This document shows positions 13,240 through 61,765 of a DNA stretch of 64,000 bases, one piece after another; position 1 is the first letter of the stretch; each line of letters begins with the position of its first letter. The DNA lies in NCBI GenBank assembly GCA_965198225.1, contig CBDAOY010000005.1, positions 512,001-576,000 on the forward strand, given 5' to 3'. The notes under the pieces were generated by a model. The model was not told where the DNA came from, ran no database searches, and saw only the letters and a list, made by a program, of their open reading frames with translations. The position numbers and the translations under genes are program-made. This stretch comes from Terriglobia bacterium. GTDB taxonomy: Bacteria > Acidobacteriota > Terriglobia > 20CM-2-55-15.

Positions 13240-14685
13240 TCAAACCGCTGCGACGGCAATCAAGGCGGGAATTCCTACGAGGTTGATTGCGCGGCGCATG
13301 TTGTAGGCCAAGGCGGTGAGGCTGAACTCCCCGCGGACATTGCCGAGTCGGCGCGTCAGGAACGCGCCTTGGCCCATCCACTGCTTGATCGAACCGAAGG
13401 GATGCTCGACCGACTCCCGGCGACGATCCATCACCTCGGGCCGGGCGGCGAGACGGTTCGCCATGCGCTCCATCGTTGCTTCGTTCTCGAAGCGCGTGAT
13501 GCGCCGATAGGTGTTCTTGGTACATCGTTCGCGTAGACCGCAGCCTCTGCATGCGGCGCGGTTGGCGTAACTGACAAGATACGTGCCTGTGCGCGACTTA
13601 CCCACGCTTCGGCGATACAACGGCACCAGGCGCTCACCAGCGGGGCACCGGTAGGTGTCCGTGGAGTCGTCGTATTGGAAATCGGACTTCGGAAAGTGGC
13701 CACTGCGTCTGGCCGTGCTCCGGTCGGGCTTCGGAACGTAGGGCGTGATCCCGGCGGCTTCGCAGTCCTCAATGTCTTCGATCTTGTAGTAGCCTCGGTC
13801 CGCGACCGCGTCGATCTCGTCGACAGCCAAGTTCTCCCGAGCCGCTGTGGCCGTCTCCGCGAGCAGACCGAGGTCCGAGACCTTGCTATGGACCTGCTGT
13901 TCGGCGATCAGGTTGTGCTCAGTGTCGACAGCGATCTGGACGTTGTAGCCGACTCCGACCCGTGTCCCGGAATGCATTGACCGGGAGTCCGGATCCGTAA
14001 GCGACAGCTGGGCTTCTCCGGTATCGTCCAGCGTCTGCCGATGCCCCTCCAAGGTCTCCTTTCTCTTACGGATCGATGCGATCTTCTCCTGAAGATCCGC
14101 CACGGCAGCCGCTCTGCCGCCGGCATCATCGTCGGCTTCGCCTGGTCGAGGTATCGAGTCGGTCGCGATACGCTGCAGGTCCGTCTTCAGCTTGGCCCGC
14201 GTGAAGTTGCGGTCCCGGTGGTTCACCGCCTTGATGCGCGTGCCGTCCACGGCGATCAACTCCCGCCCGTACAGGTCGAGTTCCCGGCACAACCGCACGA
14301 ACCGCCGAAACACCGCCCGGAACGCATGCCGATTGTCGCGCCGGAAGTCGGAGATCGTCTTGAAGTCGGGCTTCAGCTGGCGTAGCAGCCAGATCGCCTC
14401 GAGGTTGCGATGCGTCTCTGTCTCCAGCCTGCGGCTCGACCGAATACGATTCAGATACCCGTAGATATACAGCTTCAGCAGATCCGCGGGATCGTAGCCT
14501 GGACGGCCCTTGTCGTTGGGCCGAACGCGCTGGAATCCAGCCGCCTCAAGGTCGAGACCGTCGACGAATGCATCAATGAAACGGACCGGGTTGTCCGGTC
14601 CCACGTAGTCGTCCACAGTATCGGGCAGAAGCAGAAGCTGGGAACGGTCTTCACCGGTGATATGTGCCATGACACATTTTACCAA
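13240..14685 (-). CDS. IS1182-family transposase (small internal lesion relative to the second copy); element end at 14754
   Basis: GRPGYDP, SSRRLE, AVDGTRIKA, ADRGY, RRESVEHPFGSIK; end sequence CAGACTGTGTGAAAAGTC. Confidence 0.92.
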   Translation of the reverse strand: MVKCVMAHITGEDRSQLLLLPDTVDDYVGPDNPVRFIDAFVDGLDLEAAGFQRVRPNDKGRPGYDPADLLKLYIYGYLNRIRSSRRLETETHRNLEAIWLLRQLKPDFKTISDFRRDNRHAFRAVFRRFVRLCRELDLYGRELIAVDGTRIKAVNHRDRNFTRAKLKTDLQRIATDSIPRPGEADDDAGGRAAAVADLQEKIASIRKRKETLEGHRQTLDDTGEAQLSLTDPDSRSMHSGTRVGVGYNVQIAVDTEHNLIAEQQVHSKVSDLGLLAETATAARENLAVDEIDAVADRGYYKIEDIEDCEAAGITPYVPKPDRSTARRSGHFPKSDFQYDDSTDTYRCPAGERLVPLYRRSVGKSRTGTYLVSYANRAACRGCGLRERCTKNTYRRITRFENEATMERMANRLAARPEVMDRRRESVEHPFGSIKQWMGQGAFLTRRLGNVRGEFSLTALAYNMRRAINLVGIPALIAVAAV

Positions 14686-15116
14686 CCGCCATGGGGAACC
14701 TGATGCCAGTTCACCGACTCCCGCCCGGCTGTCGCCGACTTTTCACACAGTCTGGTTCCTTTGTGCGCCAGGCGCAAGTTTCCACCCGCAGCTTCGGACA
14801 GCATGTGGCGGATATTCCGGGAGCGGTATCCCCTTGCTGTGGGCATTCTTTGCTTCTTAATCTGCCCCTTCCATGCACGGGCTGATCCTGCGCCTCGGAT
14901 TTCAATCCCCGGGTCAGGCGCGACAACGTCTTGCTATCGCCGCGGCGGCTTGATTATGGTGGGTTCACTCTGTCCATGAAATCAGGGGCGGTACAGTCCA
15001 TCTCGTTTCGCTGGACATAGCGTGATCCTCCTGCGTTGTAGTTTCTCAAATCACTGTCCAAAGAAATCGTGGGGCGGGGAAAACATTGCACGCTAAGATG
15101 GGTGGCATGTCCAAAC

Positions 15117-15245: not shown

Positions 15246-15326
15246 AATGAGGCATCCAGCGTAAACGAGACGATTCGGTTTCCATTGCTGAAGAAAAAGA
15301 TGGGGACCGAAGGAGAGGAGCCCTCC

Positions 15327-17540
15327 GTGCAGCTGAAAGCCTTCCGTGTGCAGAAGTTTCGAAATATTGAGGACTCGGGAGAGGTCGATCTAACCGATGC
15401 GCTCGCTTGCGTGGTCGGGAAGAACCAGGCGGGGAAGAGCGCCCTCCTACGCGGGTTGCACAAGTTCAACCCGCATCGCCCGGCGCCGTACGACATGCGC
15501 CGCGACTGGCCCCGTGGCCAGCGCACCAAGCGCGACAAGAAGCAGGTCGTTTGCCAGGTGCGATTCACACTCTCGCCCGAAGAGTTGAAAAAGCTTGGAG
15601 AGATCGCTGGCCGGGAATTGAGCGGCGCGGATGTCGTCGTCACGAAGGACTACGATGGGAAGTTCGGGATTCAGCTCCCAGAAGATTCGGATCTCTTCCC
15701 GGACGAATTGCACTCCGATCCGATCGATGCTATCTGCGAAAAACTGCCAGAGCCGACCTACCCGGTCGGCATGAAGTTCCAGGCGGCGGCAGACAAGTGC
15801 ATCCTGGAGGCCAGGCAGTACGCAAGGGAGCGCCGCTTCGAGGAACTCACCCAGCTCCGCGACCAGCACGTAGCGGTGCTCGAAGAGGAACGCACCGACG
15901 TGAAGGTGGCGCGCCAACAGGCGAACGAAAAACAGTTCATTGAGGATTACAAGACGAAGCTGACGGAGGCCTTGACCGCGCTCGGCGTCGAGCGCACGAA
16001 ACATCAGCAGGCCCAAGACTACATCATCTCCCGGCTCCCGACTTTCATCTACATGGATGATTACAAGAGATTCCAGGGCTGCGCTAACCTGGAGCAACTC
16101 AAAGAGCGCCGGAACAACAAGAAATTGGCCCTCTCCGAAGAGGACGAGACGTTCCTGATGATCCTCAAGCTCGGCGGTCTCGACCTGGACAAGTTGATCG
16201 AGCAGGGCAAGTCAGAAGATCAGGACGTCATCCATGATCGCCAGATCGATCTCCAGGACGCCGCCACGACGTTGACCAGCGGCGTCGCCGGACGCTGGGG
16301 CCAGAACGAGTACCAGGTGCAGTTCCGGGCCGATGGACCTCTGTTCTTCACAGAGATTGAGGAGACGGCCAAAAACATTGGGATGATCCCGCTCGAGGAG
16401 CAGTCGAAGGGCTTCCAGTGGTTCTTCTCGTTCGATCTGCACTTCATGCACGACAGCGAAGGATCCTTCGAGGGCTGCGTGCTTCTGCTAGACGAGCCTG
16501 GCCTCCACCTGCATCCGGGGGGGCAAAGGGATCTTCTCTCGCGCCTGGACGCATACGCGAAGAAAAACACGCTGATCTATACGACGCACCTGCCGTCCCT
16601 CGTCGATCTGCGCGAGCCCAAGCGGATCAAGATCATCAAGCAAACTGAGCTGGGGGCAGTAGTATCGGATGATCTCGGCGGAACTCAGACCGACGAGCGG
16701 CTGACGCTTCAGGCCGCGCTCGGGATGCGGGCGAACCAGAGTCTCCTTGTTTCCAAGCGGAATCTTCTCGTCGAGGGTGTCCACGACTACTGGATCATCA
16801 GAGAGCTCTCGAACATCTTCGAGCGTGAGGAGCGCGCCTGCCTGCCAGAAGATGTCTTGATCACAGTAGTCGGCGGGGCATCGGAGATCGTCCCGACCGC
16901 CACGTTCATGATCGGCCATGAACTCAACATCGTCGCGCTATTCAATTCGGACTCGGCGGGGAAGGAGGCCGAGGATGGGCTTCGGCAGACGTGGATCACC
17001 CGGTATAGGGGAGCACGGGCGGTGACGTTGCGGGTTGGTGACGCGCTTGGGATGCCGGACGAGGGCGCGACGATCGAAGACCTCTTCACGGAGGCCTACT
17101 ATATGGAGAAGGTGCGCGAGTCGCATGCGTTGAAGTTGAAGAGCAAGGGGCTCACCACTGATGCGATCACACTGAGCGGCTCGGGCCCCGTCCTGCCACG
17201 GCTGCAGCAGTGCTTCGACAAACTCAAGGTGGACCTCGACAAGAGGGCGGTGGGCAAGCTGATCCGCCGGGATCTGATCCAGTGCAAGGGTGTCCACTTC
17301 CTTCCGACCGGAGTGGCGGAGAAGGGTGAGGCCTTGCTGACCGCTCTGCGGGATGCGTTCGACACTCCGGACGCCGACACTCCGGACGCCGGCACTCCGG
17401 ACGTCGACACTCCGGACGCCGACACTCCGGACGTCGACACTCCGGACGTCGGCACTTCGGCCGAGCAGACGCCTCCGCTCGCAAATGTCGGTTCCGATAC
17501 TCTCGACACCGGTTCGACTGCCTCGCCCATACCGGATTGA
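15327..17540 (+). CDS. OLD-family ATP-dependent nuclease (ABC ATPase + TOPRIM)
   Basis: Walker A GKNQAGKS, SKGFQWF, Walker B LLLDEPGLHLHP, YTTH, TOPRIM LLVEGVHD and IEDLF; GTG start at 15327 with RBS (open frame from 15285). Confidence 0.88.
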   Translation: MQLKAFRVQKFRNIEDSGEVDLTDALACVVGKNQAGKSALLRGLHKFNPHRPAPYDMRRDWPRGQRTKRDKKQVVCQVRFTLSPEELKKLGEIAGRELSGADVVVTKDYDGKFGIQLPEDSDLFPDELHSDPIDAICEKLPEPTYPVGMKFQAAADKCILEARQYARERRFEELTQLRDQHVAVLEEERTDVKVARQQANEKQFIEDYKTKLTEALTALGVERTKHQQAQDYIISRLPTFIYMDDYKRFQGCANLEQLKERRNNKKLALSEEDETFLMILKLGGLDLDKLIEQGKSEDQDVIHDRQIDLQDAATTLTSGVAGRWGQNEYQVQFRADGPLFFTEIEETAKNIGMIPLEEQSKGFQWFFSFDLHFMHDSEGSFEGCVLLLDEPGLHLHPGGQRDLLSRLDAYAKKNTLIYTTHLPSLVDLREPKRIKIIKQTELGAVVSDDLGGTQTDERLTLQAALGMRANQSLLVSKRNLLVEGVHDYWIIRELSNIFEREERACLPEDVLITVVGGASEIVPTATFMIGHELNIVALFNSDSAGKEAEDGLRQTWITRYRGARAVTLRVGDALGMPDEGATIEDLFTEAYYMEKVRESHALKLKSKGLTTDAITLSGSGPVLPRLQQCFDKLKVDLDKRAVGKLIRRDLIQCKGVHFLPTGVAEKGEALLTALRDAFDTPDADTPDAGTPDVDTPDADTPDVDTPDVGTSAEQTPPLANVGSDTLDTGSTASPIPD
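17361..17450 (+). repeat. 15-bp coding tandem repeat x6 (DTPDA/V)
   Basis: G(A/G)CACTCCGGACG(C/T)C repeated six times. Confidence 0.95.
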
Positions 17541-17816
17541 TGAACGCTACCAGCGGCCTATAAGAACACCCCCAATGAGTGCAAGGCGTTGGCTCTGCTG
17601 ACAGCTTCCATGGTTTAACCGTTGCGGGTTTTGCGGTTCCGTTATCTCGTACCGACACTGCGGGAGAACGTAGAGTTTTTGCCTGTATTAGACCGGCGGA
17701 CTCGCCTTCCTCGTTGCTTCCAGGCCCATTAATGCCGCCGTCACCGGGGTTTCATGTGTGGCGCCCGATTTCGTTCGGGAATTCCAACTGAAGGGTTCTA
17801 TTCCAACAAAGGTGGG

Positions 17817-18437
17817 CGGATCGGGACGGCGCTCGCCTGGAAGGACACATTCACCGGCAGCGCAGCCCAGATCGCGAACGGTATCGAGGCGATGGCCGGA
17901 GGCGCGTCCCTGACCGAAACGTGGAGGAATCGTTTGACGGGGGCCGCTACCGTCACCGAAAGCGCTGTCCTGGACCTCTGGGCTCCTCTTGGAACCGGCC
18001 GGAGCGCGGCGGGTGTTGCGGCCTATCAGACGCAGCGGGAACAAGCCGACGTGCGGCTCGTTCTGAACTTCGTTAGCAGTGACGCGGCCACCGCGCTACT
18101 GGCGGCGGCGGATGCATCCGTAGCGGCCTATGCGGGCATGGCCGCGAACACGAACCTCTCCGATACGGCATTGCGGCAACAGCTGGTGGCCGCACGCATC
18201 ACCCGGGGCAATCTCAAGACCGGGATCGCGCAGCAGATGGCCGTCGAGGCGGCGCGGCAGAGCGCGGAGGCGCTGGAAGCCGAGATCGGGCGGCGGGAGG
18301 CGCTCTCACGCTGGGTAGCGGCGCAGCAACGGGCCCAGGCCACCTTCAGCGCGCATCAGTCCGGGATCGCCGCGCACCGCGACGCCATGCGCGAGGGATT
18401 GGCCTGGCAACCCCTGAACCTTTACGGCGGACAGTAG
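17817..18437 (+). pseudogene. 5'-truncated VirB5/TrbJ-like paralogue
   Basis: Highly similar to the C-terminal two thirds of 18447..19352 (IGTALxWKDTFTGSAAQIANGIEAM ... PLNLY). Confidence 0.75.
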
Positions 18438-18446
18438 GAGGCTGAC

Positions 18447-19352
18447 ATGAAAACCCGAATCATTCCCGTGCTCATTCTGCTGCCGGTCCTCATCGTTTCG
18501 ATGACCGTCGAGGCCCAGGCAATCATCGGCGGCATTATCGCGGGCATCCAGCGGGCACAGATGATCGTCAATCAGGGCCTGCAGATCTACGAGCAGCAAC
18601 TCGCCAAGCTCACGATGGACGGGCAACTGCTTCAACTGACCGATCAGTTCGACCACCTGCGGGACCAGGCGCTGGGCGCGGTCGGGGAACTCACCGATCC
18701 GTTCACCGACATGGTTTCCCAGCCCACGCGGATGATCGGGACGGCGCTCACCTGGAAGGACACATTCACCGGCAGCGCGGCCCAGATCGCGAACGGCATC
18801 GAGGCGATGGCGGCGGGCACGTCCCTGACCCAGACGTGGCAAGGGCGTCTGGCTGCGGTCGACACCGTGACGGAAACCGAAGTTCTCGCCCTCTACGCTC
18901 CGCTTGGAACCGATCGGAGCGCGGCGGCATCGTCGGCCTATCAGTCACAGCGGGAACAGGCCGACGAGCGCCTTGTCCTGAGTTTCGCCACCAGCGACGC
19001 GGCCACCGAGCTGCTGCGAGCGGCCGAGGAGGCGGCGGCCGCTTACGCGGACATGGCCGCCAGGACGAACCTGTCGAATACCGCATTGCAGCAACAGTTG
19101 GTTGCCGGAGCCATTACCGAGGGCAACCTGGATGCCGCCATCGCGCAGATGGGGGCTGTGGAGGCGGCGCGGCGGAACGCGGAGGCACTGGAAGCCGAGA
19201 TCGGACGCCGGGAAGCGCTCGCCCGCTGGGTGGCGGCCCAGCAACGCGCCCAGGCGACGTTCAATGCGCATCAGGCCGGGATCGCGGCACACAGCGACGC
19301 CATGGGCGAGGGATTGGCGTGGCGTCCCTTGAACCTTTACGCGGGACCGTAG
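18447..19352 (+). CDS. VirB5/TrbJ-like secreted type IV secretion protein
   Basis: Signal peptide ending AQA, Gln/Ala-rich helical protein, directly upstream of VirB6 and VirB8. Confidence 0.65.
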   Translation: MKTRIIPVLILLPVLIVSMTVEAQAIIGGIIAGIQRAQMIVNQGLQIYEQQLAKLTMDGQLLQLTDQFDHLRDQALGAVGELTDPFTDMVSQPTRMIGTALTWKDTFTGSAAQIANGIEAMAAGTSLTQTWQGRLAAVDTVTETEVLALYAPLGTDRSAAASSAYQSQREQADERLVLSFATSDAATELLRAAEEAAAAYADMAARTNLSNTALQQQLVAGAITEGNLDAAIAQMGAVEAARRNAEALEAEIGRREALARWVAAQQRAQATFNAHQAGIAAHSDAMGEGLAWRPLNLYAGP

Positions 19353-19358
19353 CGGATC

Positions 19359-20398
19359 GTGTGCGCACTGTTTCTGGTCCTGCTGCTACAGGTGCCGACT
19401 CAGATTGATCCCGCTGTGCCGGTACAGATACCCGAAGGCGATCAGGCCAACTTCAAGCTGTTCCTGGACCGGGTACTGGAATCCGTATTGGGGAGTGCGG
19501 CCAATCCAGTCCTCGATCTGGGACGCGATCTGTGGCGGGGCATGGCGGTCATCGTCATCGTCTGGACCGGATTGAAGATCGCCTTCAGCGGGAGCATCGA
19601 GGCATGGGAGATCGTGCGGCTCGTCTTCGGATTATGGATTCCGTGGGTGATGTTGCAATTCTATTCGGTGCCCTTGCCGGGAATGGCCCTGTCCTTTCCG
19701 GAAATGATTGCGGGAGGCGGGACGTGGCTGCAACGGATGTTTCTCGAGGACACGGTTTCCTCGATGCAAACCCAGCTGGGCGACCTCGTCAACAATCTCG
19801 CCGCCGACCTGGAAGCCGCCCGCCAGGGCGGGCTGATCTCCATGGTTGTGACCGGCGTCGGGCGCACCCTGACTCTGGTTGCCGGAGCCATCATCATGCT
19901 CCTGGTGGTGCTCTGTCTCGTTCTCTTGTTCGCCGTCACCTACGCCCAGGTGATCTGGGCCCAGATCGCCATCTACATCCTCATCTTCATCGGGCCGATC
20001 TTCATCCCCTGGATGGTGTTCGAGCCGCTGGCCTTCATGTTCTGGGGCTGGTTCAAGGCCATGATCACCTACTCGCTCTATGGCCTCGTCGCCGGCGTCG
20101 TCATGCGCGTGTTCATGGGCGTGGCGCTGGGCTTCGTGACCACGCTCAACTCCACCACGCTCAACTGGGACTCGCTGGCCGACCTGGGCCGGTGGCTGCT
20201 GGTCGTGCTCCCCTCTTCGTGGCCGGGATACTGGCCAGTCTCAAGGTCGGGGCGCTGGCCTCGATGCTGGTCACCGGAGGCGGGGCCGCCGGCAGCGGGA
20301 TCGGGGGAGTCGCGACAGCGGGCGCGGCAGCGGCCAGCGGCGGCGCGAAGCTGGCGGCCAGCGGCGGGAAAGCCGGGGCGACAGGAGGCTTGAAATGA
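19359..20398 (+). CDS. virB6: VirB6/TrbL type IV secretion membrane protein (frameshift in C-run at ~20210)
   Basis: Polytopic; FIGPIFIPWMVFEPLAFMFWGWFK motif; Gly/Ala-rich tail continues in the frame ending 20398. Confidence 0.82.
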
Positions 20399-21060
20399 GC
20401 AGGAAAGAACCGAAAGACGCCGGGGCCGAATACGCCGAGATCTGGGGCGAGGCCATCCACTCGAATCGTCATCTGCGGGTGTTCTCGATCGGGCTGGGCG
20501 CGGTGTGCGTCTTGCTCATCATCGTCATCATTCGGATTGTGGGGGTCGATCCCCCCAAACCCATCGTCATCCGGGTGGACGAGATCGGGCGGGCCGAGGC
20601 GCTGGCCTATGAAGCGGTGGAGGCCCAGGCGAATCCCCTGGACTCCACCACCAAATACTTTCTCAACCGCTTCATCCACGACTTCTATTCCCGGCGGCGG
20701 GCCACCGTCCAGGAGGGCTGGAGCCGCTCGCTCCGCTTTCTCGCCGCGCCCCTCGCCAACGCTTCCTTCCAGGCCGAGGGCCAGAACGTCGCCCTGCTCG
20801 CGGCCGGCGGCGCCCGGGACGAGTTGCAGGTGGATAACGTCGTGCTTCGCATCCAGGCCAACCCTGCCCCTCCCCACGGAGCGGTTGCCGACTTCGATCT
20901 GGTCCGGCTGGTTCAGTCGTCTGAGGTGGCGCGCGAGCGATGGTCGCTCTCGCTCCAATTCATGTTCCTCGACCGGGTCCCCCCGGACCTGATCGTCTAC
21001 AACCCGATGGGCCTGGTGATTACCTATCTCCAGGGCGATCGGGCCTTCGGCGGACAATGA
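20395..21060 (+). CDS. virB8: VirB8/TrbF family protein
   Basis: Single TM, PIVIRVDEIG, YNPMGLVITY motif. Confidence 0.88.
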   Translation: MSRKEPKDAGAEYAEIWGEAIHSNRHLRVFSIGLGAVCVLLIIVIIRIVGVDPPKPIVIRVDEIGRAEALAYEAVEAQANPLDSTTKYFLNRFIHDFYSRRRATVQEGWSRSLRFLAAPLANASFQAEGQNVALLAAGGARDELQVDNVVLRIQANPAPPHGAVADFDLVRLVQSSEVARERWSLSLQFMFLDRVPPDLIVYNPMGLVITYLQGDRAFGGQ

Positions 21061-22055
21061 CGATCGCGCACCTTCGAGGCCGGGAGAAAGCGCTGGAACC
21101 GCTGGGATGGACCGGGGCCGAGGCGGAGTGGATCGCCCTGGTCTGCCTCCATAGCGGCATCTTTACCCGGTCGCAGTTCTGCTTCTACTTCGACGTGCGG
21201 CCTAATCGCGCCCATCGCTTCGTACGGGCTTTGGTTCAGCGCGGATCGGCGGCGGAGCCCAACACGCCCCGGTATGAAGGCGCGGCGCGGGCTTGCCGAA
21301 TATTCGACAAACGGATCTACCGGGCGCTCGGGATCCAGGACGTAAAGCATCGCCGGGAAGCGACCTTCGACCTCACCCTGCGGCGGCTGCTCTCCTTCGA
21401 TTACGTCCTGGAACATCCGAACCTGCGATGGCTTCCCACCGAGGGGGAAAAGGTCGCGTGCTTTGACGGCCTCGGGATCGGCCGGGATCTCTTGCCGCGC
21501 CGGGTCTACAAGGGAGCGGCGGGGGCCCAGAAACGCTTTTTCGCGCTGAAACTTCCCATCGCCATGGACACCGAAATCGCCACGTTCATCTATGTCGATC
21601 CGGGGCATGAAACCGACAACGGGATTCGCTCTTGGGGGGGCGCGCATCGGCGGCTTTGGAACGCCCTTCTGGCGAAAGGTATCGCGGTTCGGATCGTGGC
21701 GATTGCCCGGAACCGGGAGGCGCTGGACCGGGCCGTGAAATGGTTGCGGACCTGGGCAACAACCACCCCGAAATCACAGCCCCAGGGGATGACGGCGAAG
21801 CAGGAAATCGAGCATATCACCCAGGCCATCCTTGACGGAGATTGGGCCGGGTTGGATGAGCGATATGGGGGTCTGAATCCGGCCATACAGCGGAAGGATG
21901 CACTGATGGAGAATCCGGTGCGGAACGTCGGCGAGGGGGTGTCGATTACCGACTACCGGGCCGTGTGTACCGGGCGGATCCATGTCCTGGAGAACTGGTC
22001 CGGGGCCGAGACCGAAGACGAGCCGGAGGGGACATGGCGCGTGGAGACGGTTTGA
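21057..22055 (+). CDS. uncharacterised 332-aa protein coupled to the T4SS operon (candidate relaxase/origin-binding protein)
   Basis: ATGA overlap with the virB8 stop; homologue at 60981-61592; wHTH-like N-terminus; function inferred from context only. Confidence 0.75.
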   Translation: MTIAHLRGREKALEPLGWTGAEAEWIALVCLHSGIFTRSQFCFYFDVRPNRAHRFVRALVQRGSAAEPNTPRYEGAARACRIFDKRIYRALGIQDVKHRREATFDLTLRRLLSFDYVLEHPNLRWLPTEGEKVACFDGLGIGRDLLPRRVYKGAAGAQKRFFALKLPIAMDTEIATFIYVDPGHETDNGIRSWGGAHRRLWNALLAKGIAVRIVAIARNREALDRAVKWLRTWATTTPKSQPQGMTAKQEIEHITQAILDGDWAGLDERYGGLNPAIQRKDALMENPVRNVGEGVSITDYRAVCTGRIHVLENWSGAETEDEPEGTWRVETV

Positions 22056-22084
22056 GGGTCGGGTCGGGGCCGAATCCGGGGCGA

Positions 22085-22232
22085 TCCGGTGGAATACCCC
22101 CCCCTGTTTCCTGGAATAGGGTCAACAGCGGGGGTATTCCAGAATCCGGGTCGCGGGCATTCCAAAACCCCCTTCCATCAGGTCCCTCATTCTTCGGTTC
22201 TTATCCCCGAATACCCCGGCCCGACCGTTACG
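22085..22232. promoter_or_regulatory. putative oriT-like site, variant 1
   Basis: TGGAATA at 22090 and 22112, (T/C)ATTCCA at 22135 and 22158, then a core shared with 61699-61765. Confidence 0.55.
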
Positions 22233-22407
22233 AGGCAGGAGGAGCGGAGAGGACGGGAGCGACCCCCCCTCTGGCGCGTTGTCCTGGTCATGGCTGTGGG
22301 CCCCGGTGGTGCCCCCGCCCTTTCCCCGGTGGGGGGATCGCTCCCGTCCTATTTATCCCTGCGGGAAGGCTCGGAGCCGAAGCGGGAGGCGGGAAGCGCC
22401 GAGGTCC

Positions 22408-22715
22408 CAGCAGCGCCTTGCGCGCCGCGGCGAGCACCTCCGGGGGCAGGGAACCGAGGCGCACCAGGTCGTTGGGAGAAACACTCCGCTTGCCGAAGCG
22501 CCGCACGGTGATGGCCACGCTGGGGCTGGCCGGCGGGACGCAGATGGCCACTCTTGATCCGTCATCCAGGCGGGCATCCACGATAGGCTTCTGCGCCGGG
22601 TCCAGACCCAGGGGCCGCGCAATATGGATGGCCGCGCGGGCCAGCGCCCGCCGATCGAGCGCGGGCGCCGGGTGGGGCTGGAGTTTTCCATGCGGGGCGA
22701 GTTTATCGCGCTCGA
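22408..22715 (-). pseudogene. VirB11/CpaF secretion ATPase internal fragment
   Basis: DARLDDGSRVAICVPPASPSVAITVRRFGKR. Confidence 0.75.
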
Positions 22716-23200
22716 GAATCAGGCGCGCATTCAGGGGCGGGGCTTATGGGCGCCGCGTTAGGCCGGGCTATGCCGAACACGAAATGTTGGGGGCCTTCCC
22801 TTCCCTCTGGCCGCAATCCGCGCTGTCTCGCGCAATCCGCACACACGGTCTTGAGGGTCGGCCACCTTCGTAGGGCGGCGCCTTTGCACGGCGGACTTCC
22901 AACGCCGGGGCGAGCCAACAGGCTGCGCCTCGGCGGGTGCGCCCATCGAGTCCTTGCCCCGGCCGGAATCTCGGTTGGGTTCCGACGATGTGCCGCCGGC
23001 CGCTGGCGGGGACCGTGGCCCGGCGCACCTCTCACGCCAGACCGGGAACCCGCTCCGCGGCGTCTGTCAGTCGATGTGCTTTATGCCGGGCGGGCCTGTC
23101 CCCGTCAGCGCCCTGGCTATCCCCTTCCCGCCGGGCTTGCCTTTGTCGCCTGTCTTTGTGAACGACAAAATTCAAACCCTTTAACTCAGAAGGATCCAAC

Positions 23201-23470: not shown

Positions 23471-23823
23471 CCCAACGCGGCTGCGGCGGGGATCACGCCC
23501 CGCCGCAGCTATGGCGCTGTCAGGGTCCACGGCTATCGCTCGCTTTGCAAGGGAGGCTACTGATGGTCGATGAGCAATTCGGAAAACTGGCAGCGATGCG
23601 CAGGGTCGACCACATTAAAGCTCTCGGCGTCGCCGTCGCTTTGATCCGAGCTTACACCGACAAATTCATTGCCACAGAACTGAAGCAGGTTGCCAGGCGC
23701 TGGGGACGTCGGTTTCTGGGCGAAGCGTTGCTTCTCAAGAGCTCCGACGCCGACAAAAACTTATTCTTAGCGGACCCGCGCTGGCCAGCGAAGAACGATA
23801 ACAATAAGAGGAATTTTAAAGAC

Positions 23824-24756
23824 ATGCGCGATAAATCAAAACCTGATCTCTCGCTGGTGCCACCCCAGGCCCGGCATCACTTCACTTTGGCCGATCAGGT
23901 GGACCAGTTAGTCGCGGCCAGCGAAGCGGACGCCGATATAGGTTTCATGGCGCGGCTGCTCTCGCTGTGCAGCCTGCCCCGCACCAACCCCGGTGACCAG
24001 AAGGAATACAAGCGGATCAATGGGCCGTACACTCTCTACATGAACGCTACGGCAAACAACAAACTCCCCTACGGAAATCTCCCCCGCTTGATCCTCGCGT
24101 GGCTATGTACCGAGGTGGTAAAGACACAAAGCCGCGAGATCGTTCTAGGAAAGTCGCTGGCCGAGTTCATGCGCAAGCTAGGGATCGGCAGTGACAGCGG
24201 CGGGAGCCGGGGCGAGGGCACCCGCCTCCGCAATCAAATGAAGCGGCTGTTTCATTGCACGGTCTCACTGATCTCCGAGCACGCGCACGGGGAGCGATTT
24301 GTCACATCGCCCATTGCCGACCGGGGTGAATTCTGGTGGGATCCGACACGGTCCGATGAGCGCCCACTGTGGAGTAGCAAAATCCGCATCGGTGAGGATT
24401 TTTTCAACCAGATCATCAGCCACCCCGTGCCGATCGACATGAACACCCTGAAGGCGCTCAAGCGTTCCTCGGTGGGCTTGGACATGTACCTGTGGCTAGT
24501 GTATCGAACCTTCTCTCTCACGAGGCCACTATCCCTCTCATGGCGTCAGATATACCGCCAATTCGGCGCAGATCCAGCCAACGCCACCGACAAATTCGCC
24601 GTCCGCAGCTTCCGTGAAAAGGCGCTACGCGAGTTGAATAAGATCAAGACGGCATGGCCGGGACTGAACTATGGGACGGCCAGGGGCGTATTGATCCTGT
24701 ACCCCTCAAAGTCCGCGATCCCTCCAGCACCCAAGCCATTGCGGCTTGCGGAATAG
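23824..24756 (+). CDS. repA: plasmid replication initiator (RepA_C family)
   Basis: GFMARLLSLCSLPRTNP, LPYGNLPRLILAW, RLRNQMKRLF, LDMYLWLVYR; frame open from 23545, ATG 23824 preferred. Confidence 0.88.
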   Translation: MRDKSKPDLSLVPPQARHHFTLADQVDQLVAASEADADIGFMARLLSLCSLPRTNPGDQKEYKRINGPYTLYMNATANNKLPYGNLPRLILAWLCTEVVKTQSREIVLGKSLAEFMRKLGIGSDSGGSRGEGTRLRNQMKRLFHCTVSLISEHAHGERFVTSPIADRGEFWWDPTRSDERPLWSSKIRIGEDFFNQIISHPVPIDMNTLKALKRSSVGLDMYLWLVYRTFSLTRPLSLSWRQIYRQFGADPANATDKFAVRSFREKALRELNKIKTAWPGLNYGTARGVLILYPSKSAIPPAPKPLRLAE

Positions 24757-42044: not shown

Positions 42045-43472
42045 CAGACTGTGTGAAAAGTCGGCGACAGCCGGGCGGGAGTCGGTGAACTGGCTTCGGG
42101 TCCCCCATGGGGGTTGGTAAAATGTGTCATGGCACATATCACCGGTGAAGATCGTTCCCAACTTCTACTTCTGCCCGATGCTGTGGACGACTACGTGGGA
42201 CCGGACAACCCGGTCCGTTTCATTGATGCGTTCGTCGACGGCCTCGACCTTGAGGCTGCTGGAGTCCAGCGCGTTCGGCCCAACGACAAGGGCCGTCCGG
42301 GCTAGGATCCCGCGGATCTGCTGAAGCTGTATATCTATGGGTATCTGAATCGTATTCGGTCGAGCCGCAGGCTGGAGACAGAGACGCATCGCAACCTCGA
42401 GGCGATCTGGCTGCTACGCCAGCTGAAGCCCGACTTCAAGACGATCTTCGACTTCCGGCGCGACAATCGGCATGCGTTCCGGGCGGTTTTTCGGCAGTTC
42501 GTGCGGTTGTGCCGGGAACTCGACCTGTACGGGCGGGAGTTGATCGCCGTGGACGGCACGCGCATCAAGGCGGTGAACCAGCGGGACCGCAACTTCACGC
42601 GGGCCAAGCTGAAGACGGACCTGCAGCGTATCGACGACCGACTCGACCGCTACCTTGACCAGCTGAACGAGGCCGACGCGGATGATGCCGGCGGCAGAGC
42701 GGCTGCCGTGGCGGATCTTCAGGAGAAGATCGCATCGATCCGTAAGAGGAAGGAGACCTTGGAGGGGCATCGGCAGACGCTGGACGATACCGGAGAAGCC
42801 CAGCTGTCGCTTACGGATCCGGACTCCCGGTCAATGCATTCCAGGACACGGGTCGGAGTGGGCTACAACGTCCAGATCGCTGTCGACACCAAGCACAACC
42901 TGATCGCCGAACAGCAGGTCCATAGCAAGGTCTCGGACCTGGGTCTGCTCGCGGAGACGGCTACAGCGGCTCGGGAGAACTTGCCTGTCGACGAGATCGA
43001 CGCAATCGCGGACCGAGGCTACTACAAGATCGAAGACATTGAGGACTGCGAAGCCGCCGGGATCACGCCCTACGTTCCGAAGCCCGACCGGAGCACGGCC
43101 AGACGCAGTGGCCACTTTCCGAAGTCCGATTTCCAATACGACGACGCCACGGACACCTACCGGTGCCCCGCTGGTGAGCGCCTGGTGCCGTTGTATCGCC
43201 GAAGCGTGGGTAAGTCGCGCACAGGCACGTATCTTGTCAGTTACGCCAACCGCGCCGCATGCAGAGGCTGCGGTCTAGGCGAACGATGTACCAAGAACAC
43301 CTATCGGCGCATCACGCGCTTCGAGAACGAAGCAACGATGGAGCGCATGGCGAACCGTCTCGCCGCCCGGCCCGAGGTGATGGATCGTCGCCGGGAGTCG
43401 GTCGAGCATCCCTTCGGTTCGATTAAGCAGTGGATGGGCCAAGGCGCGTTCCTGATGCGCTGGCTCGGTTGA
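42045..43472 (+). mobile_element. IS1182 second copy; transposase with in-frame TAG (42303-42305) and 3' truncation
   Basis: Near-identical to the 13240-14754 copy in inverted orientation; starts CAGACTGTGTGAAAAG. Confidence 0.9.
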
Positions 43473-44211: not shown

Positions 44212-44457
44212 TCACCTGAACCGCCGGTACCCCCTCGCCTCGCGCAGGCGCGCCTCGGCCAGCTCCTCCGCCGCGGCTCGCGGGAGCAGCCCTTTGTCCC
44301 GTGAACGCTCGAGCGTTTCACGCGTGTTCGTGCCGACTTTCTCTTCGATCGTCGCCAGAGCCTGGGTCGGGCCACCCCCGTGGTATTCGACCGCCGCGCA
44401 GATGACGCCGCCGGCGTTGGCGATGAAGTCGGGGATGCTCACGACCCCATTCTCGTG
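44212..44457 (-). pseudogene. Glu/Leu/Phe/Val dehydrogenase C-terminal fragment cut by IS5
   Basis: IPDFIANAGGVICAAVEY. Confidence 0.8.
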
Positions 44458-45561
44458 GACCTTGTTGCATGGATCATCCCGAAGGATGTCTTATCATTGT
44501 GTTTTTCAACACCGGGGATAACTTAGATGCCACATAAGTTCAACGCAGCCCGACGGCACAAGTTTGATAAGGCGCAGTACCGGGTGATCAACTGGGCGGA
44601 ATATAACGAGAGCCTGCGCCAGCGGGGTGATCTGACGATTTGGGTCAGTGATGAGGCTCAAAGTGTGTGGCGCGCGCCGCGCCGCACGTCACGGGGTGGC
44701 CAGCGGAGATACTCGGATCTGGCTATCGAGACATGCCTGACGCTGCGCACGGCGTATCGGCTTGGGTTGCGACAAACGCAGGGGCTGATGGGTTCCATCG
44801 GCACGCTCATGGGGCTGGATATACGGGTGCCGGACTTCTCCACACTGTCGCGTCGCGCAAACGGCTTGAGCATCGCGCAGGTGATGAGGCAAGCCGGGTC
44901 TGTGCCTGTCCATCTGGTGGTGGACAGTACCGGCCTCAAGATCTTCGGCGAAGGGGAATGGCTCGCGCAGAAACATAAAACCAGGGGAATACGCCGCCGC
45001 TGGCGCAAACTCCACCTCGGACTGGACCTCCATAGCGGTGCGATTGTTTGCGCCAATCTGACTCACGATGACGTTGGAGACAGCACCGCCTTGCCCGGGC
45101 TCCTGGATCAACTCGATGCCCCTGTCACGGGCTTTCTGGCGGACGGCGCCTATGATGGAGCGTCCACACGGGATCTGCTGAGGGAACGGTATGGGGAGAC
45201 CCTGGATGTGGTTATACCGCCGCCAAAGAACGCAGTGATCCGACCGCAATCGGCGCGGGATCCAACCGTTCGGGATCGCCATATTGCCCAGATCCGCAGC
45301 AACGGCCGCATGGCCTGGCAAGTGGCCACAGGGTACAACCAGCGCAGCCGGATAGAAACGCAGATCGGCCGGTGGAAGAGCGTCATCGGCCCCAAGCTCA
45401 AATCTCGCAGCTTCTCCAGGCAAATCACGGAGATCCAGGTCGGCCAGAAAGTCCTGAACACAATGACCGCACTCGGACGGCCTGTGTTCGAACGTATCGC
45501 CTGACGCTACCGCTTTGGAAAGGGCGAATTCCATCTCCGCCCCGATCCATGCAACAACGCT
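44458..45561 (+). mobile_element. IS5-family (IS903-like) element, copy 1, 1104 bp
   Basis: IRs GACCTTGTTGCATGGATC / GATCCATGCAACAACGCT. Confidence 0.95.
44527..45504 (+). CDS. IS5-family transposase
   Basis: NWAEYNESLRQRG, VDSTGLK, WRKLH, ADGAYD, GYNQRSRIET. Confidence 0.95.
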   Translation: MPHKFNAARRHKFDKAQYRVINWAEYNESLRQRGDLTIWVSDEAQSVWRAPRRTSRGGQRRYSDLAIETCLTLRTAYRLGLRQTQGLMGSIGTLMGLDIRVPDFSTLSRRANGLSIAQVMRQAGSVPVHLVVDSTGLKIFGEGEWLAQKHKTRGIRRRWRKLHLGLDLHSGAIVCANLTHDDVGDSTALPGLLDQLDAPVTGFLADGAYDGASTRDLLRERYGETLDVVIPPPKNAVIRPQSARDPTVRDRHIAQIRSNGRMAWQVATGYNQRSRIETQIGRWKSVIGPKLKSRSFSRQITEIQVGQKVLNTMTALGRPVFERIA

Positions 45562-52327: not shown

Positions 52328-53431
52328 AGCGTTGTTGCATGGATCGGGGCGGAGATGGAATTCGCCCTTTCCAAAGCGGTAGCGTCAGGCGATACGTTCG
52401 AACACAGGCCGTCCGAGTGCGGTCATTGTGTTCAGGACTTTCTGGCCGACCTGGATCTCCGTGATTTGCCTGGAGAAGCTGCGAGATTTGAGCTTGGGGC
52501 CGATGACGCTCTTCCACCGGCCGATCTGCGTTTCTATCCGGCTGCGCTGGTTGTACCCTGTGGCCACTTGCCAGGCCATGCGGCCGTTGCTGCGGATCTG
52601 GGCAATATGGCGATCCCGAACGGTTGGATCCCGCGCCGATTGCGGTCGGATCACTGCGTTCTTTGGCGGCGGTATAACCACATCCAGGGTCTCCCCATAC
52701 CGTTCCCTCAGCAGATCCCGTGTGGACGCTCCATCATAGGCGCCGTCCGCCAGAAAGCCCGTGACAGGGGCATCGAGTTGATCCAGGAGCCCGGGCAAGG
52801 CGGTGCTGTCTCCAACGTCATCGTGAGTCAGATTGGCGCAAACAATCGCACCGCTATGGAGGTCCAGTCCGAGGTGGAGTTTGCGCCAGCGGCGGCGTAT
52901 TCCCCTGGTTTTATGTTTCTGCGCGAGCCATTCCCCTTCGCCGAAGATCTTGAGGCCGGTACTGTCCACCACCAGATGGACAGGCACAGACCCGGCTTGC
53001 CTCATCACCTGCGCGATGCTCAAGCCGTTTGCGCGACGCGACAGTGTGGAGAAGTCCGGCACCCGTATATCCAGCCCCATGAGCGTGCCGATGGAACCCA
53101 TCAGCCCCTGCGTTTGTCGCAACCCAAGCCGATACGCCGTGCGCAGCGTCAGGCATGTCTCGATAGCCAGATCCGAGTATCTCCGCTGGCCACCCCGTGA
53201 CGTGCGGCGCGGCGCGCGCCACACACTTTGAGCCTCATCACTGACCCAAATCGTCAGATCACCCCGCTGGCGCAGGCTCTCGTTATATTCCGCCCAGTTG
53301 ATCACCCGGTACTGCGCCTTATCAAACTTGTGCCGTCGGGCTGCGTTGAACTTATGTGGCATCTAAGTTATCCCCGGTGTTGAAAAACACAATGATAAGA
53401 CATCCTTCGGGATGATCCATGCAACAAGGTC
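52328..53431 (-). mobile_element. IS5-family element, copy 2 (inverted, identical protein)
   Basis: Same IRs and same 325-aa transposase as copy 1. Confidence 0.95.
52385..53362 (-). CDS. IS5-family transposase
   Basis: Translation identical to 44527..45504. Confidence 0.95.
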   Translation of the reverse strand: MPHKFNAARRHKFDKAQYRVINWAEYNESLRQRGDLTIWVSDEAQSVWRAPRRTSRGGQRRYSDLAIETCLTLRTAYRLGLRQTQGLMGSIGTLMGLDIRVPDFSTLSRRANGLSIAQVMRQAGSVPVHLVVDSTGLKIFGEGEWLAQKHKTRGIRRRWRKLHLGLDLHSGAIVCANLTHDDVGDSTALPGLLDQLDAPVTGFLADGAYDGASTRDLLRERYGETLDVVIPPPKNAVIRPQSARDPTVRDRHIAQIRSNGRMAWQVATGYNQRSRIETQIGRWKSVIGPKLKSRSFSRQITEIQVGQKVLNTMTALGRPVFERIA

Positions 53432-53618
53432 CAGCTATGAGGAGATCGTATCGCGCGAGAAGACGAATCTGGACCTCTTCTGGCTCAGGGACAAGAGCCT
53501 GACCGACCTGGACAACCTGCCCGAACCCGACGATCTCGCCGAAGACATCATCGAGAACCTCGGAGCCGGCCTCAATAGTTTTCGCGAGGTGCTCGCGGGT
53601 TTGCGGAAGGCAGAGTAG
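53432..53618 (+). pseudogene. hsdM: displaced C-terminus of HsdM
   Basis: SYEEIVSREKTNLDLFWLRDKSLTDLDNLPEPDDLAEDIIENL continues ...GRWRSYSYE at 45562. Confidence 0.9.
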
Positions 53619-59105: not shown

Positions 59106-60590
59106 CTACTGGATCTCCGTCAGCACGTAGTCGCGCGCGGCGGCGCTGTGACAATTCTGGCATCCTTCGACCATGCCCTCAGCGTCCACGTTTCCGTTTG
59201 CCGCGCGCTTCAGCCAGTACCAGTCCCCGTGCTCCGGGTTGTAGCCGGCACTCTTGTACATGACCGTCACCGCGGCCAGCGTGCGGTCCGGCGTATAGTT
59301 CTCCTTGACGATGATCGAGCCGGCCGGCAGCGTGCCAGAAGAAAACGGGCCCGTTCTGCGCATCAATGCGTTCCGCGCGGTATCGTTGACGTACGTGATG
59401 AGCAGGGCGCCATGGGGCGACATGCCCGGTTGGAAGCGGCTCGTTCCGGGGAACAGCGGCCAGTCCGTGTACATCTCACTTTGGAGATAGCCCCAGACCG
59501 ATTGCGCGTTCGGCGCCGGCAGCGACAGGCGCTCATAATAGCCGGAGCCGACCAGGATCGGCAGGCCATGGGACACGACCCTCTTGACGAAAGCCACCTT
59601 GCCCTGCGACATTCCGGTGGCGGGATTGCGCGTCGAGTAGTACAGGAAGGTTTCACCGAACGCATCGCCGACGCTCACCACATCCCGACCGGCGAAAGGG
59701 CCGTCCAGATCGTCGTTCAACTCGGAAGCGCGGGAAAAGACGCCATACGTGTGGCTGTAGGGATAGCCGCTGAACAGCGTGTAGCCGTAGGTATCCAGGC
59801 CGAACACATAGATCGAACCACTGTTCCAGTGCGGATCGGTGGACAGCGCCCGGGTCGCGAAGTACCCCTGCGATTCCAGCTCCATTGCCGCGCAGCGGAC
59901 AAACACCTGCAGCCTCTCAACGGAAGGCGCCGCCTCAAGCCCCATGGCGTGGACCTCTTCCGCCTCGCAGGTGACGGGAAGGTCACGGCGGTAGACCCCC
60001 GCCCCGATCGCGGCCAGGTTTCCCTCCCAGTCGATGCCCTTGATGTAGGTCGCCTTCGGCTCCTCCCGGCCCGTTGAGGGGTTTGGGAACGAGTAATAGA
60101 GCCAGCCCTCACCGAAGCCGCTCACGATACGATGCTGTTCCTTGTAGTAGTCGTTGCCGAAGGCGTCGATGAGGAGTCCTAGCGAGGATCCTACCCTTGG
60201 AGGAGCGGGCGGCCAAACGAACAGTCGCGCCTGATCGCTCATCGGGGTCGCTTCGGAGACGAAGACATAGATGGCCCCGCTCTTCCAACGCGTATCCTCG
60301 TGAAAGGCCCGCCGGGCCTCCTCAAATCCCATTTCCTGGACATACTCATAGGCGCATTGGACAAACGCTTGAACGTCCTCCGTTGTGCTTACCGCGCTGG
60401 CGACAATGGATTTATCCGCGCAAGACAGGGGTTCGGTTCCCGCCCGGGGAGCGCGCGGGGCGGGCGTGGACTGCAGAGCTGCAAAGATCAAGAGCAGCCC
60501 GGCGATTGCGGTTAGCTTCACCCAGCCGGAAATTCGGGGGAGACGATCAGCCACAAACTGTGCGATTAAGATGCCCATGCCTACCTCCAA
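59106..60590 (-). CDS. exported tandem Cache-domain protein fused to a cytochrome P460-family domain
   Basis: Two repeats (FVxCA...WxSGxIYVF...YYS..NP.TG...K..xVK); C-terminal PHG...LPAGSIIVKENY...VMYK...GDWYW...CQNCH. Confidence 0.82.
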   Translation of the reverse strand: MEVGMGILIAQFVADRLPRISGWVKLTAIAGLLLIFAALQSTPAPRAPRAGTEPLSCADKSIVASAVSTTEDVQAFVQCAYEYVQEMGFEEARRAFHEDTRWKSGAIYVFVSEATPMSDQARLFVWPPAPPRVGSSLGLLIDAFGNDYYKEQHRIVSGFGEGWLYYSFPNPSTGREEPKATYIKGIDWEGNLAAIGAGVYRRDLPVTCEAEEVHAMGLEAAPSVERLQVFVRCAAMELESQGYFATRALSTDPHWNSGSIYVFGLDTYGYTLFSGYPYSHTYGVFSRASELNDDLDGPFAGRDVVSVGDAFGETFLYYSTRNPATGMSQGKVAFVKRVVSHGLPILVGSGYYERLSLPAPNAQSVWGYLQSEMYTDWPLFPGTSRFQPGMSPHGALLITYVNDTARNALMRRTGPFSSGTLPAGSIIVKENYTPDRTLAAVTVMYKSAGYNPEHGDWYWLKRAANGNVDAEGMVEGCQNCHSAAARDYVLTEIQ

Positions 60591-60980: not shown

Positions 60981-61592
60981 CACCGAGGGGGAAAAGGTCG
61001 CATGTTTCGACGGCCTGGGGATCGGCCGGGACCTGTTGCCGCGCCGGGTCTACAAGGGAGCGGCCGGCCAACAGAAACGGCTCTTCGCGCTGAAACTTCC
61101 CATCGCCGTGGACACCGAAACCGCCACGTTCGTCTATGTCGATCCGGGACATGAAACCGCTTACGGAATCCGCGCATGGGGGAGCGCGCATCGGCGGCTT
61201 TGGGATGCCCTTCTGGCGCAGGGCATCCCGGTCCGGGTCGTGGCGATTGCGCGGAGCCGGGAAGCCAGGGCGCGTGCCGGGCAAAGGTGCGCGATCTGGG
61301 CCCAGGCCACGCCGGGGACCCGGAAGAAGGGGATGACGGCGAAGCAGGAAATCGAGCATATCAAGCGGGCAATCATCGCGACCAGGCCGTACTGGACAGC
61401 TATGGGGGGCTCAATGCGGCCTACGGGCGCAAGGAGGAGCTGGATCGAAACCCCGAGCTGAATTTGGGTGATGGGGTGTCGATTACCGACTACCGCGCCA
61501 TCTGTTCCAGGCGGGTTCAGGTGCTCGAAAACGGGTCCCGGGCCGAGGCGGAAGACGAGCGGGAGGAGACATGGCGTGGGGAGGCGGTTTGA
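60981..61592 (+). pseudogene. 5'-truncated, frameshifted homologue of 21057..22055
   Basis: TEGEKVACFDGLGIGRDLLPRRVYKGAAG...FALKLPIA...VDPGHET...GMTAKQEIEHI shared. Confidence 0.88.
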
Positions 61593-61619
61593 GGGCCGGC
61601 CGGGTCCTAATCCGGGGGT

Positions 61620-61765
61620 TTTCCTGTTACAAAGACCCCCTTTTTCTGTTACGCGGACAGAGGGGGGTATGTAACACGATTCCGGGGCGGTATGTAACAA
61701 ACCCCCTTCCATCAGGCTGCTCATTCTCCGGTTCTTATCCCGAAATACCCGGCCCGAGCGTGACG
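61620..61765. promoter_or_regulatory. putative oriT-like site, variant 2
   Basis: TGTTAC at 61625 and 61647, GTAACA at 61671 and 61694, then the core shared with 22165-22232. Confidence 0.55.

Follow-up and report, generated by a model that had tools for sequence, protein, structure and literature searches.

What serves as the origin of transfer (oriT), and which protein recognizes it, in a type IV secretion system (T4SS) operon that has no recognizable classical relaxase? The question is raised by a 64,000-nt stretch of the genome of a Terriglobia bacterium (contig CBDAOY010000005.1, positions 512,001–576,000; hereafter the window), in which a gene for a 332-aa protein, here called X (protein P0001; no Pfam or NCBIfam match), is followed by a non-coding block of short direct and inverted repeats, a second version of which lies elsewhere in the window. 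Comparison of the two blocks with those of related loci suggested that the block acts in cis as a DNA-processing site, most likely as an oriT whose recognition is element-specific, and that X is its specificity factor and probable non-canonical relaxase, a reading to which we give slightly better than even odds (a probability of about 0.55). Its host elements in Acidobacteriota and Gemmatimonadota are most likely of the integrative conjugative or mobilisable kind.

Layout of the Two Repeat Blocks

An initial annotation of the window had described two direct and two inverted motifs followed by a shared core in both blocks, and a re-reading of the coordinates bore this out. As read directly from the sequence, the first block (v1) carries TGGAATA at 22090–22096 and 22112–22118, followed by inverted TATTCCA (22135–22141) and CATTCCA (22158–22164), and the second block (v2) carries TGTTAC(A) at 61625 and 61647, followed by inverted TGTAACA at 61670–61676 and 61693–61699. 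The site spacing is identical in the two blocks (22, 23, and 23 bp). The layout was scored by comparing site 3 with its three partner sites as 8-mers (maximum score 24); of 1010 shuffles made from 101 related intergenic regions with dinucleotide composition preserved, none scored as high as v1 (22) or v2 (21) (mean 16.2, standard deviation 1.4, maximum 20). The cores are 86% identical over 57 nt (22165–22221 versus 61699–61755), or 82% over 90 nt in a longer alignment, and a self-comparison of the window returned a single homologous block, 21437–22252 versus 60981–61785, with 77% identity.

Other parts of the annotation needed correction. The gene preceding v2 had been taken for a second homologue of the 332-aa gene, but it is a remnant, comprising just the 3' two-thirds of X, whose homology begins at 60981 (about residue 128) and which is frameshifted. 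The sites and core lie where they were placed, but the module reaches beyond the assigned end at 22232 and includes, in v1 only, a hairpin (22251–22349) and a box (22355–22371). Similarly, the conserved core of about 65 bp is common to v1 and v2, but it is only moderately conserved across the family, in which the base of the hairpin and the box are more strongly conserved.

The v1 gene-plus-module was also present in contigs of three other metagenome runs, including one contig of 1221 nt with three differences. These DNA-run contigs end at about 22370, where the box is common to many related elements. In the contigs from the three runs, a C-run between v1 sites 1 and 2 (22096–22104) is longer by one or two C, which reflects either a homopolymer assembly error or true length variation altering the site spacing; the distance between v1 sites 1 and 2 may in reality be 23–24 bp instead of 22. 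From the one RNA run, two contigs were placed, neither of them on the intergenic region, and they have no bearing on transcription or RNA ends.

Recurrence of the Module in VirB-Type Operons

More than 1282 proteins matched X, none of them named or assigned to a Pfam family, and the 30 nearest ESM Atlas clusters were likewise all unnamed and without a Pfam family. In the species genomes, X relatives were encoded in 333 of the 355 candidate stretches scanned, from which 80 loci were kept. Their hosts are metagenome-assembled genomes (MAGs) of Acidobacteriota (Bryobacterales, Terriglobia, Acidiferrales, and Vicinamibacteraceae) and Gemmatimonadota (Longimicrobiales and Palauibacter), with a few further MAGs labelled Chloroflexi, Dehalococcoidia, or Gammaproteobacteria, and several loci per genome are common. 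Within the taxonomic family of the window, X was found in 9 of 34 genomes, and in none of the three other genomes of the same genus, a sporadic distribution typical of a mobile element. One 8.4-Mb genome of this family gave 29 X matches, mostly of a 322–329-aa subfamily, an unusually high number for a conjugation-type module. A metagenome scan with P0001 returned a single weak, unrelated-looking locus (L091, 31% identity), which was left out, and tblastn searches of the PLSDB plasmids with P0001 and with one PF13814 protein gave no match. No description of the X family was found among the matches listed in a search of the literature on conjugation in Acidobacteria/Acidobacteriota, which is not proof that the family is unpublished.

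The module recurs downstream of X homologues in Acidobacteriota and Gemmatimonadota, inside a VirB-type T4SS operon. Clustering of the open reading frames (ORFs) over all loci, with annotation of representatives, gave the consensus order VirB4-like ATPase, VirB9 (CagX), VirB10 (TrbI), an unknown gene, VirB6, VirB8, X, the intergenic module, the type IV coupling protein (T4CP), and VirB11, with a nuclease, a tyrosine integrase, or ArdC a few kb downstream. The VirB4 profile PF03135 had no match in one carrier genome, where a VirB4-like ATPase was detected by other Pfam models.

In an alignment of 20 intergenic regions of the A subfamily, to which the window belongs, the parts follow one another in the order direct sites 1 and 2, a G-run, inverted sites 3 and 4, the core, a small variable hairpin, a long hairpin, an invariant ATTTATCCCTGCGGGAAGGCTC, a leader, and the T4CP start codon. 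The sites are fixed at about +26, +50, +74, and +97 past the stop codon of X, with a fifth copy in the long hairpin's loop at about +245, and they share the frame TG-NNN-CA, filled in as TGTGGCA, TGTGACA, TGGGACA, TGGAACA, TGTACCA, TGTTCCA, TGCGGCA, TGTTGCA, and others. In the B (Gemmatimonadota) subfamily, one direct and two inverted sites form a cluster, the loop holds a further copy, and the motifs are TGCGCA, TTCACA, and TGTGCA; the C subfamily (322-aa proteins) has as many as 10 motif copies. Of the unique intergenic regions, 19/27 (A), 28/52 (B), and 17/22 (C) had some 6-mer in at least four exact copies within their initial 300 nt; the figure for shuffles was 91/505. The layout is thus kept downstream of other homologues in the sense that it recurs with lineage-specific motifs, but its strict four-site form is found in one subfamily only.

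Such an arrangement could also be a replication origin, in which the heptamers would be iterons, X a theta-type or rolling-circle initiator of the excised element, and the core an unwinding element. The repeats lie about two helical turns apart next to a relatively A+T-rich core, and a RepA_C gene stands beside X in the window and in five further loci (L019, L022, L026, L027, and L043). Rolling-circle origins such as that of pMV158 combine bind-locus repeats with a nick in a distant hairpin loop, a layout that the present module resembles. In iteron-type origins, however, tandem direct iterons are bound by a Rep initiator with a tandem winged-helix fold, whereas the sites here are two direct and two inverted, with no tandem array. 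Moreover, X sits in a T4SS operon adjoining the T4CP gene, a separate RepA_C protein is available as initiator, and the structural neighbours of X downstream of its winged helix are nuclease-like and not Rep-like, in a comparison that included no Rep structure directly and does not thereby exclude a Rep fold. We regard a replication origin as quite improbable, and note that this explanation partly overlaps the oriT reading, as a relaxase is also able to start an integrative and conjugative element's rolling-circle replication.

Covariation of X with the Repeats

In an AlphaFold2 model of X (predicted local distance difference test, pLDDT, 79.8), the N terminus forms a winged helix whose recognition position is taken by helix 49–61, and residues 1–100 matched MarR/ArsR-type winged helix-turn-helix (wHTH) proteins with Z of 5.4–6.6 (MarR-type 6.0–6.6). 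The annotation had proposed a test for covariation between the motifs and the wHTH region, and the result was positive. Among the 25 loci of the A subfamily, which fall into 13 motif classes, residue 53 was identical in 0.91 of same-motif pairs compared with 0.10 of different-motif pairs, and it was the best-separating column of the alignment, followed by residues 48 and 50, with the identity of the rest of the protein being 0.68 for both kinds of pair. Residue 53 is L with TGTGGCA or TGTTCCA, E with TGT(G/C)ACA, Y with TGGGACA, S with TGGAACA, Q with TGTACCA or TGTAACA, and H with TGCGGCA, TGTTGCA, TGGGGCA, or TATTCCA (L, E, and Y types going with motifs GTGTGGCA, GTGTGACA, or GGGACA). X backbones that are 87–92% identical and have different motifs differ mainly in residues 44–56, and backbones that are 49–69% identical and have the same motif share residue 53. 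In the B subfamily (37 loci, three classes), positions 47, 49, and 51 track the motif perfectly or nearly so.

Because the motif co-varies with residues 47–55 across different backbones, X very probably binds the lineage-specific repeats through its winged-helix recognition helix, with residue 53 and its neighbours 47–51 as the residues that, on the evidence of covariation, would set specificity. The motifs downstream of X homologues are lineage-specific and change together with the recognition helix.

The likeness to staphylococcal oriTs of the pWBG749 family, which the annotation had drawn, is apt. According to part of one report (PMC8136818), these oriTs have variable GNNNNC sites whose recognition by the accessory protein SmpO is determined by one or a few residues, and their specificity has switched repeatedly. 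The X module likewise combines a conserved framework with short variable sites (TG-NNN-CA here), a cognate DNA-binding protein whose site specificity would depend on one or a few residues, and repeated switching over the phylogeny. The two systems differ in that SmpO is a small accessory factor apart from the relaxase, whereas X has a large second domain and a separate relaxase was not found; in host phylum and T4SS type; and in the copy of the site motif in the hairpin loop, a feature of the X module.

A Covarying Hairpin and Box

Past the core, the outer and apical stems of a hairpin of roughly 100 nt are held by compensatory changes (20 A-type sequences). Its cells were paired in 96.8% of cases compared with 46–57% for slid partners, and 38 cells had changed on both sides compared with 0–5 in the slid controls, values reached by none of 500 shuffles. 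These results support the view that folding of the downstream hairpin is selected for. The loop displays the 6-nt core of the element's own motif in 16 of the 20 aligned A-type loci.

Of 107 loci, 88 have the almost invariant box, TCC[C/T]TxC[G/A]GGAAGGy, which begins 5 nt past the hairpin (8 nt from the stem by an alternative count). In its mini-hairpin, the C5:G9 pair was C:G in 66 and T:A in 22 of the 88 loci, with no mismatch, and in 87 of 88 loci a Watson–Crick pair joined the loop base x to base y, nine positions downstream (G:C 42, C:G 29, A:T 9, and T:A 7). The x:y contact stands beside the 3-bp mini-hairpin as part of a two-base-pair, pseudoknot-like arrangement. The covariation in the box points to pairing in a single-stranded state, and the near absence of wobble pairs, with G-U in only 3 of 500 hairpin cells, would fit DNA better than RNA.

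Inverted repeats immediately 5' of a conserved sequence are also a feature of the nick regions of MOBP oriTs (RP4, Ti borders, and H. pylori tfs4), for which the relevant part of one report (PMC3772185) gives the consensus (C/T)ATCCTG(C/T) with an inverted repeat just 5' of it. The module box, TATCCCTGC, has one extra C compared with that consensus, and a similarity of 8–9 nt could be due to chance. MOBP systems furthermore require a PF03432 relaxase, which is missing from the source genome of the window as from four of five other carrier genomes. The region is therefore not assignable to the MOBP type. What it does show are features of oriTs in general: a non-coding site beside T4CP genes, with a covarying inverted repeat next to a conserved box.

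Alternatively, hairpin and box may be an mRNA leader or the terminator of the upstream operon, with X as an element-specific (immunity-like) transcription factor that acts on the T4CP-virB11 operon through the heptamers. The region lies immediately upstream of the T4CP start in most loci, the wHTH of X is MarR-like, a terminator-like match was found at 22328–22348, and the Watson–Crick covariation is compatible with RNA structure; the B-subfamily box, which stops about 10 nt short of the ATG, contains GGGAAGG, a possible ribosome-binding site. In contrast, a promoter scan of v1 and L015 found no sigma-70-like site, which is weak evidence, and an Rfam search of 21800–22800 (E ≤ 5) gave chance-level rows only, all under the gathering scores. 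The scarcity of G-U, absent also at C5:G9 (0/88), the large conserved second domain of X with its nuclease-like neighbours, and the motif copy in the loop, which would be unexpected for a double-stranded DNA operator, also speak against it. Regulation of this kind appears unlikely on these grounds, and regulation and oriT function are not mutually exclusive.

A further alternative is that the repeats are another kind of X-bound cis site, a centromere-like partition or a recombination site, and that the hairpin module is an inserted element resembling a miniature inverted-repeat transposable element (MITE). Imperfect 8-nt repeats, CGGGGAGG and CGGGAAGG, border the hairpin module, the deletion that precisely removes it in v2 and L034 lies between them, and the region contains many breakpoints (v1, L011, L023, C9:44.6 kb, and the L010 hybrid). 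Nevertheless, the loop follows the repeats of its own element in most loci, as noted above, so that the hairpin is integrated with the sites, and the hairpin as an independent MITE was rejected as the leading explanation for this reason; in addition, no partition ATPase is consistently adjacent, and the integrase is several kb off. We consider this alternative very unlikely.

Protein X and the Search for a Relaxase

The observation that the window contains no recognizable classical relaxase was confirmed and extended to the whole source genome (6.4 Mb, nine contigs, 97% complete), in which PF03432, PF08751, PF07514, and PF13814 had no match each, so that relaxases of the MOBP/Q, MOBF, and MOBH types were not found. 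PF03432 was also absent from four of five other genomes with several X copies; the fifth had two matches, on contigs other than those of its X loci.

The C-terminal domain of X, folded alone (pLDDT 83.8), had mostly PD-(D/E)xK nucleases as its top structural neighbours, namely SdaI (VIA-align Z 7.2, 127 residues aligned), NucS (6.5), CdiA-CT (6.4 and 6.2), an XisH-like protein (6.1), BstEII (6.1), AgeI (5.8), and N.BspD6I (5.7), weakly suggesting a restriction-endonuclease-like fold in the model. Residues D115, E129, E131, K132, K165, and H197 are invariant in X.

The predicted architecture of X matches that of MOBC relaxases, yet X is not a detectable member of that family by sequence. In part of one report, MOBC corresponds to Pfam PF13814 (PMC5357655), and part of another describes the MOBC relaxase TraX of pAD1 as a wHTH with a PD-(D/E)xK domain that binds five direct repeats 70–120 bp from nic and forms no covalent adduct (PMC12857230). 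In MOBC proteins (PF13814, Replic_Relax; pAD1 TraX and CloDF13 MobC, with pAD1 oriT2), an N-terminal winged helix precedes a restriction-endonuclease-type domain, as it putatively does in X, and the gene, like that of X, adjoins one for a TraG-like coupling protein; short repeats are bound at a distance of tens to over 100 bp from where cleavage is presumed to occur, as would putatively be the case for X. The repeats of the X module, however, are direct and inverted, compared with the five direct repeats of pAD1, and X occurs in diderm bacteria of soils and sponges that have a VirB-type T4SS, unlike the hosts of the MOBC comparison systems. The 13 acidobacterial PF13814 proteins compared here, from 14 of 301 Acidobacteriota genomes with a match, have an invariant PD..ExD..K signature that was not seen in X.

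Proposed Function of the Module

In the mechanism that we propose, X would anchor on the repeats and bring its conserved restriction-endonuclease-like domain to a conserved target, probably the box ATCCCTG/C beside the hairpin. It would nick one strand there, and the T4CP encoded next to it would take the DNA to the T4SS. The diversified repeats and helices would stop co-resident elements, with up to 29 X copies per genome, from processing each other's origins. A more far-reaching proposal, which we put forward tentatively and hold to be rather doubtful, is that X founds a new class of conjugative relaxases made of a winged helix and a restriction-endonuclease-like domain and lacking any detectable similarity in sequence to MOBC, in which a reprogrammable helix would read the 3–4-nt variable core in the repeats and the hairpin loop and the catalytic domain would cut the MOBP-like box.

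Several observations weigh against assigning X and its module to DNA processing at an oriT. On the side of the protein, all nuclease Z values were below 8, the level of a safe match, and unrelated Rossmann-type proteins appeared from Z 5.7 down; Foldseek searches of the PDB with the whole and domain models gave nothing at E ≤ 0.001 (best domain hit E 1.4e-2); the PD-(D/E)xK catalytic triad could not be mapped in X; hmmscan with PF13814 matched 0 of 40 X-family members even at E ≤ 10; and hhalign of the X family with the 13 acidobacterial PF13814 proteins gave a probability of 3.1% (E 0.014) with only the wHTH aligned. On the side of the DNA, the strict 8-mer layout exceeded the 99th percentile of the shuffles in a minority of the regions (19/101 when scored on four clustered sites, 43/101 when scored on three sites and the loop). 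The loop motif does not match the sites in v1 (GTGGTGCC), L019, and L069, and is one base off in L025. L043 has the outer stem without the inner hairpin, and L034 lacks the hairpin and the first half of the box; hairpin and box may be dispensable, since both loci have intact X and T4CP genes. In addition, the association in the B subfamily comprises three classes only, to which descent may contribute or which it may confound, and in L010, a locus of the same Acidiferrales MAG as L009 and L011, the upstream T4SS genes and X (E type) of L011 are joined to the intergenic module and T4CP of L009, which breaks the match between protein and motif and makes L010 either a natural recombinant or an assembly chimera. 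Finally, the site lies directly upstream of the T4CP gene, a position that an operator or leader fits equally well. A regulatory leader or operator and a replication origin are live rivals, and neither is mutually exclusive with oriT function.

State of the Window Copies and Their Surroundings

The features of the window are listed in Table 1. Both copies are parts of decayed or rearranged elements, and copy 2 is a relic. In v1, the intact X gene, four sites, core, hairpin, and box are kept, but the T4CP gene is lost and homology stops at about 22407, followed by unrelated DNA and the RepA_C gene (23545–24756); in v2, the sites, core, and T4CP gene are kept, but the X gene is broken and a deletion has taken the hairpin and box.

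Table 1. Coordinates of the repeat modules and adjoining genes in the window.
Feature	Position	Strand
v1 sites 1 and 2 (TGGAATA, direct, 22 bp apart)	22090–22118	+
v1 sites 3 and 4 (TATTCCA/CATTCCA, inverted, 23 bp apart)	22135–22164	+
v1 core, relatively A+T-richer, common to v2; moderately conserved in the A subfamily	22165–22232	+
v1 long hairpin, outer stem GGACGGGAGCGACCCC/GGGGATCGCTCCCGTCC, loop GTGGTGCC (no match to the v1 motif)	22251–22349	+
v1 conserved box ATCCCTGCGGGAAGGCT: mini-hairpin CCC-TGC-GGG and covarying x:y pair; candidate nick region	22355–22371	+
v1 final stretch homologous to v2; DNA unrelated past about 22407	22372–22407	+
v2 sites 1 and 2 (TGTTAC, direct)	61625–61652	+
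v2 sites 3 and 4 (TGTAACA, inverted)	61670–61699	+
v2 core	61700–61765	+
v2 junction CGGGGAGGCTCGGA, without hairpin and 5' half of box; same deletion in L034	61779–61792	+
Gene X, 332 aa (P0001): N-terminal winged helix and putative restriction-endonuclease-like domain; no Pfam/NCBIfam family	21057–22055	+
VirB6 (TrbL) and VirB8 genes, directly upstream of X	19359–21060	+
Second X remnant, 5'-truncated (from residue ~128), frameshift near 61347–61377	60981–61592	+
T4CP (VirD4/TraG-like) gene, continuing beyond the window	61940–64000	+

More X paralogues are encoded on contigs C7, C3, and C9 of the source genome. The blocks downstream of the paralogues carry TGCAACACC twice and GGTGTTGCA twice, or are of the AATTCACA and TTACCA types, and have a long hairpin after the repeats, then the string GATCCCTGCGGGAAGGCTCGGA, and then the T4CP start. 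The only other full-length A-type X, at about 1.05 Mb on C7, has His at position 53 and adjoins GTGTTGCA sites. None of the X copies of the genome pairs with the TGTAACA module, and v2 thus looks orphaned. At every copy examined in the source genome, the box stands beside a T4CP gene or T4CP remnant and nowhere else. The right half of a v1-like hairpin, with box, leader, and full T4CP gene, follows unrelated DNA at C9:44560–46908, and at C4:114473–115240 a module packed with TTTTCACAC repeats lies beside T4CP remnants, with no X match found on contig C4. The module seems to be a frequent breakpoint, a hotspot of recombination or rearrangement.

The RepA_C (PF04796) gene lies downstream of X in the window; in the five other loci named above it lies upstream of X on the opposite strand, in the place that virB genes take in intact elements (L019 keeps virB8). 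Its recurrence beside X suggests smaller replicative or mobilisable derivatives of the element. Just upstream of virB6, two adjacent paralogous genes of no known family (17754–18437 and 18447–19352), with about 80% nucleotide identity in their 3' parts, stand where intact elements have their conserved unknown gene, between virB10 and virB6, and a 751-aa AAA_15 ATPase ORF (15285–17540) contains seven tandem 15-nt units (ACACTCCGGACGCCG-like) in its 3' part (17344–17478). A 494-aa ORF on the minus strand (59106–60590), with Cache sensor and C-terminal cytochrome P460 domains, abuts the truncated X remnant. Transposases and repeated insertion sequence copies abound in the window; two inverted, 100% identical copies of 1106 bp (44456–45561 and 52328–53433) flank about 6.8 kb in a composite-transposon-like arrangement, and another inverted pair (13343–14754 and 42045–43468) is 96.5% identical.

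Significance

Acidobacteriota and Gemmatimonadota are dominant phyla of soils and sponges in which conjugation has hardly been studied, and their common T4SS elements would be scored as "MOB-less" by tools limited to the relaxase profiles tested here. With a delimited cis site, its partner protein, and a specificity code that can be read off (residue 53 and its neighbours versus the TG-NNN-CA core), the question is open to direct testing. If the oriT reading is correct, a further relaxase/oriT family would be gained, the coexistence of many related elements in a single genome without cross-talk would be accounted for, and orthogonal DNA-transfer parts would become available. The more doubtful proposal, a new class of relaxases, would explain the transfer of the abundant "relaxase-less" VirB-type elements of Acidobacteriota and Gemmatimonadota and would provide a natural library of mutually orthogonal oriT/relaxase pairs.

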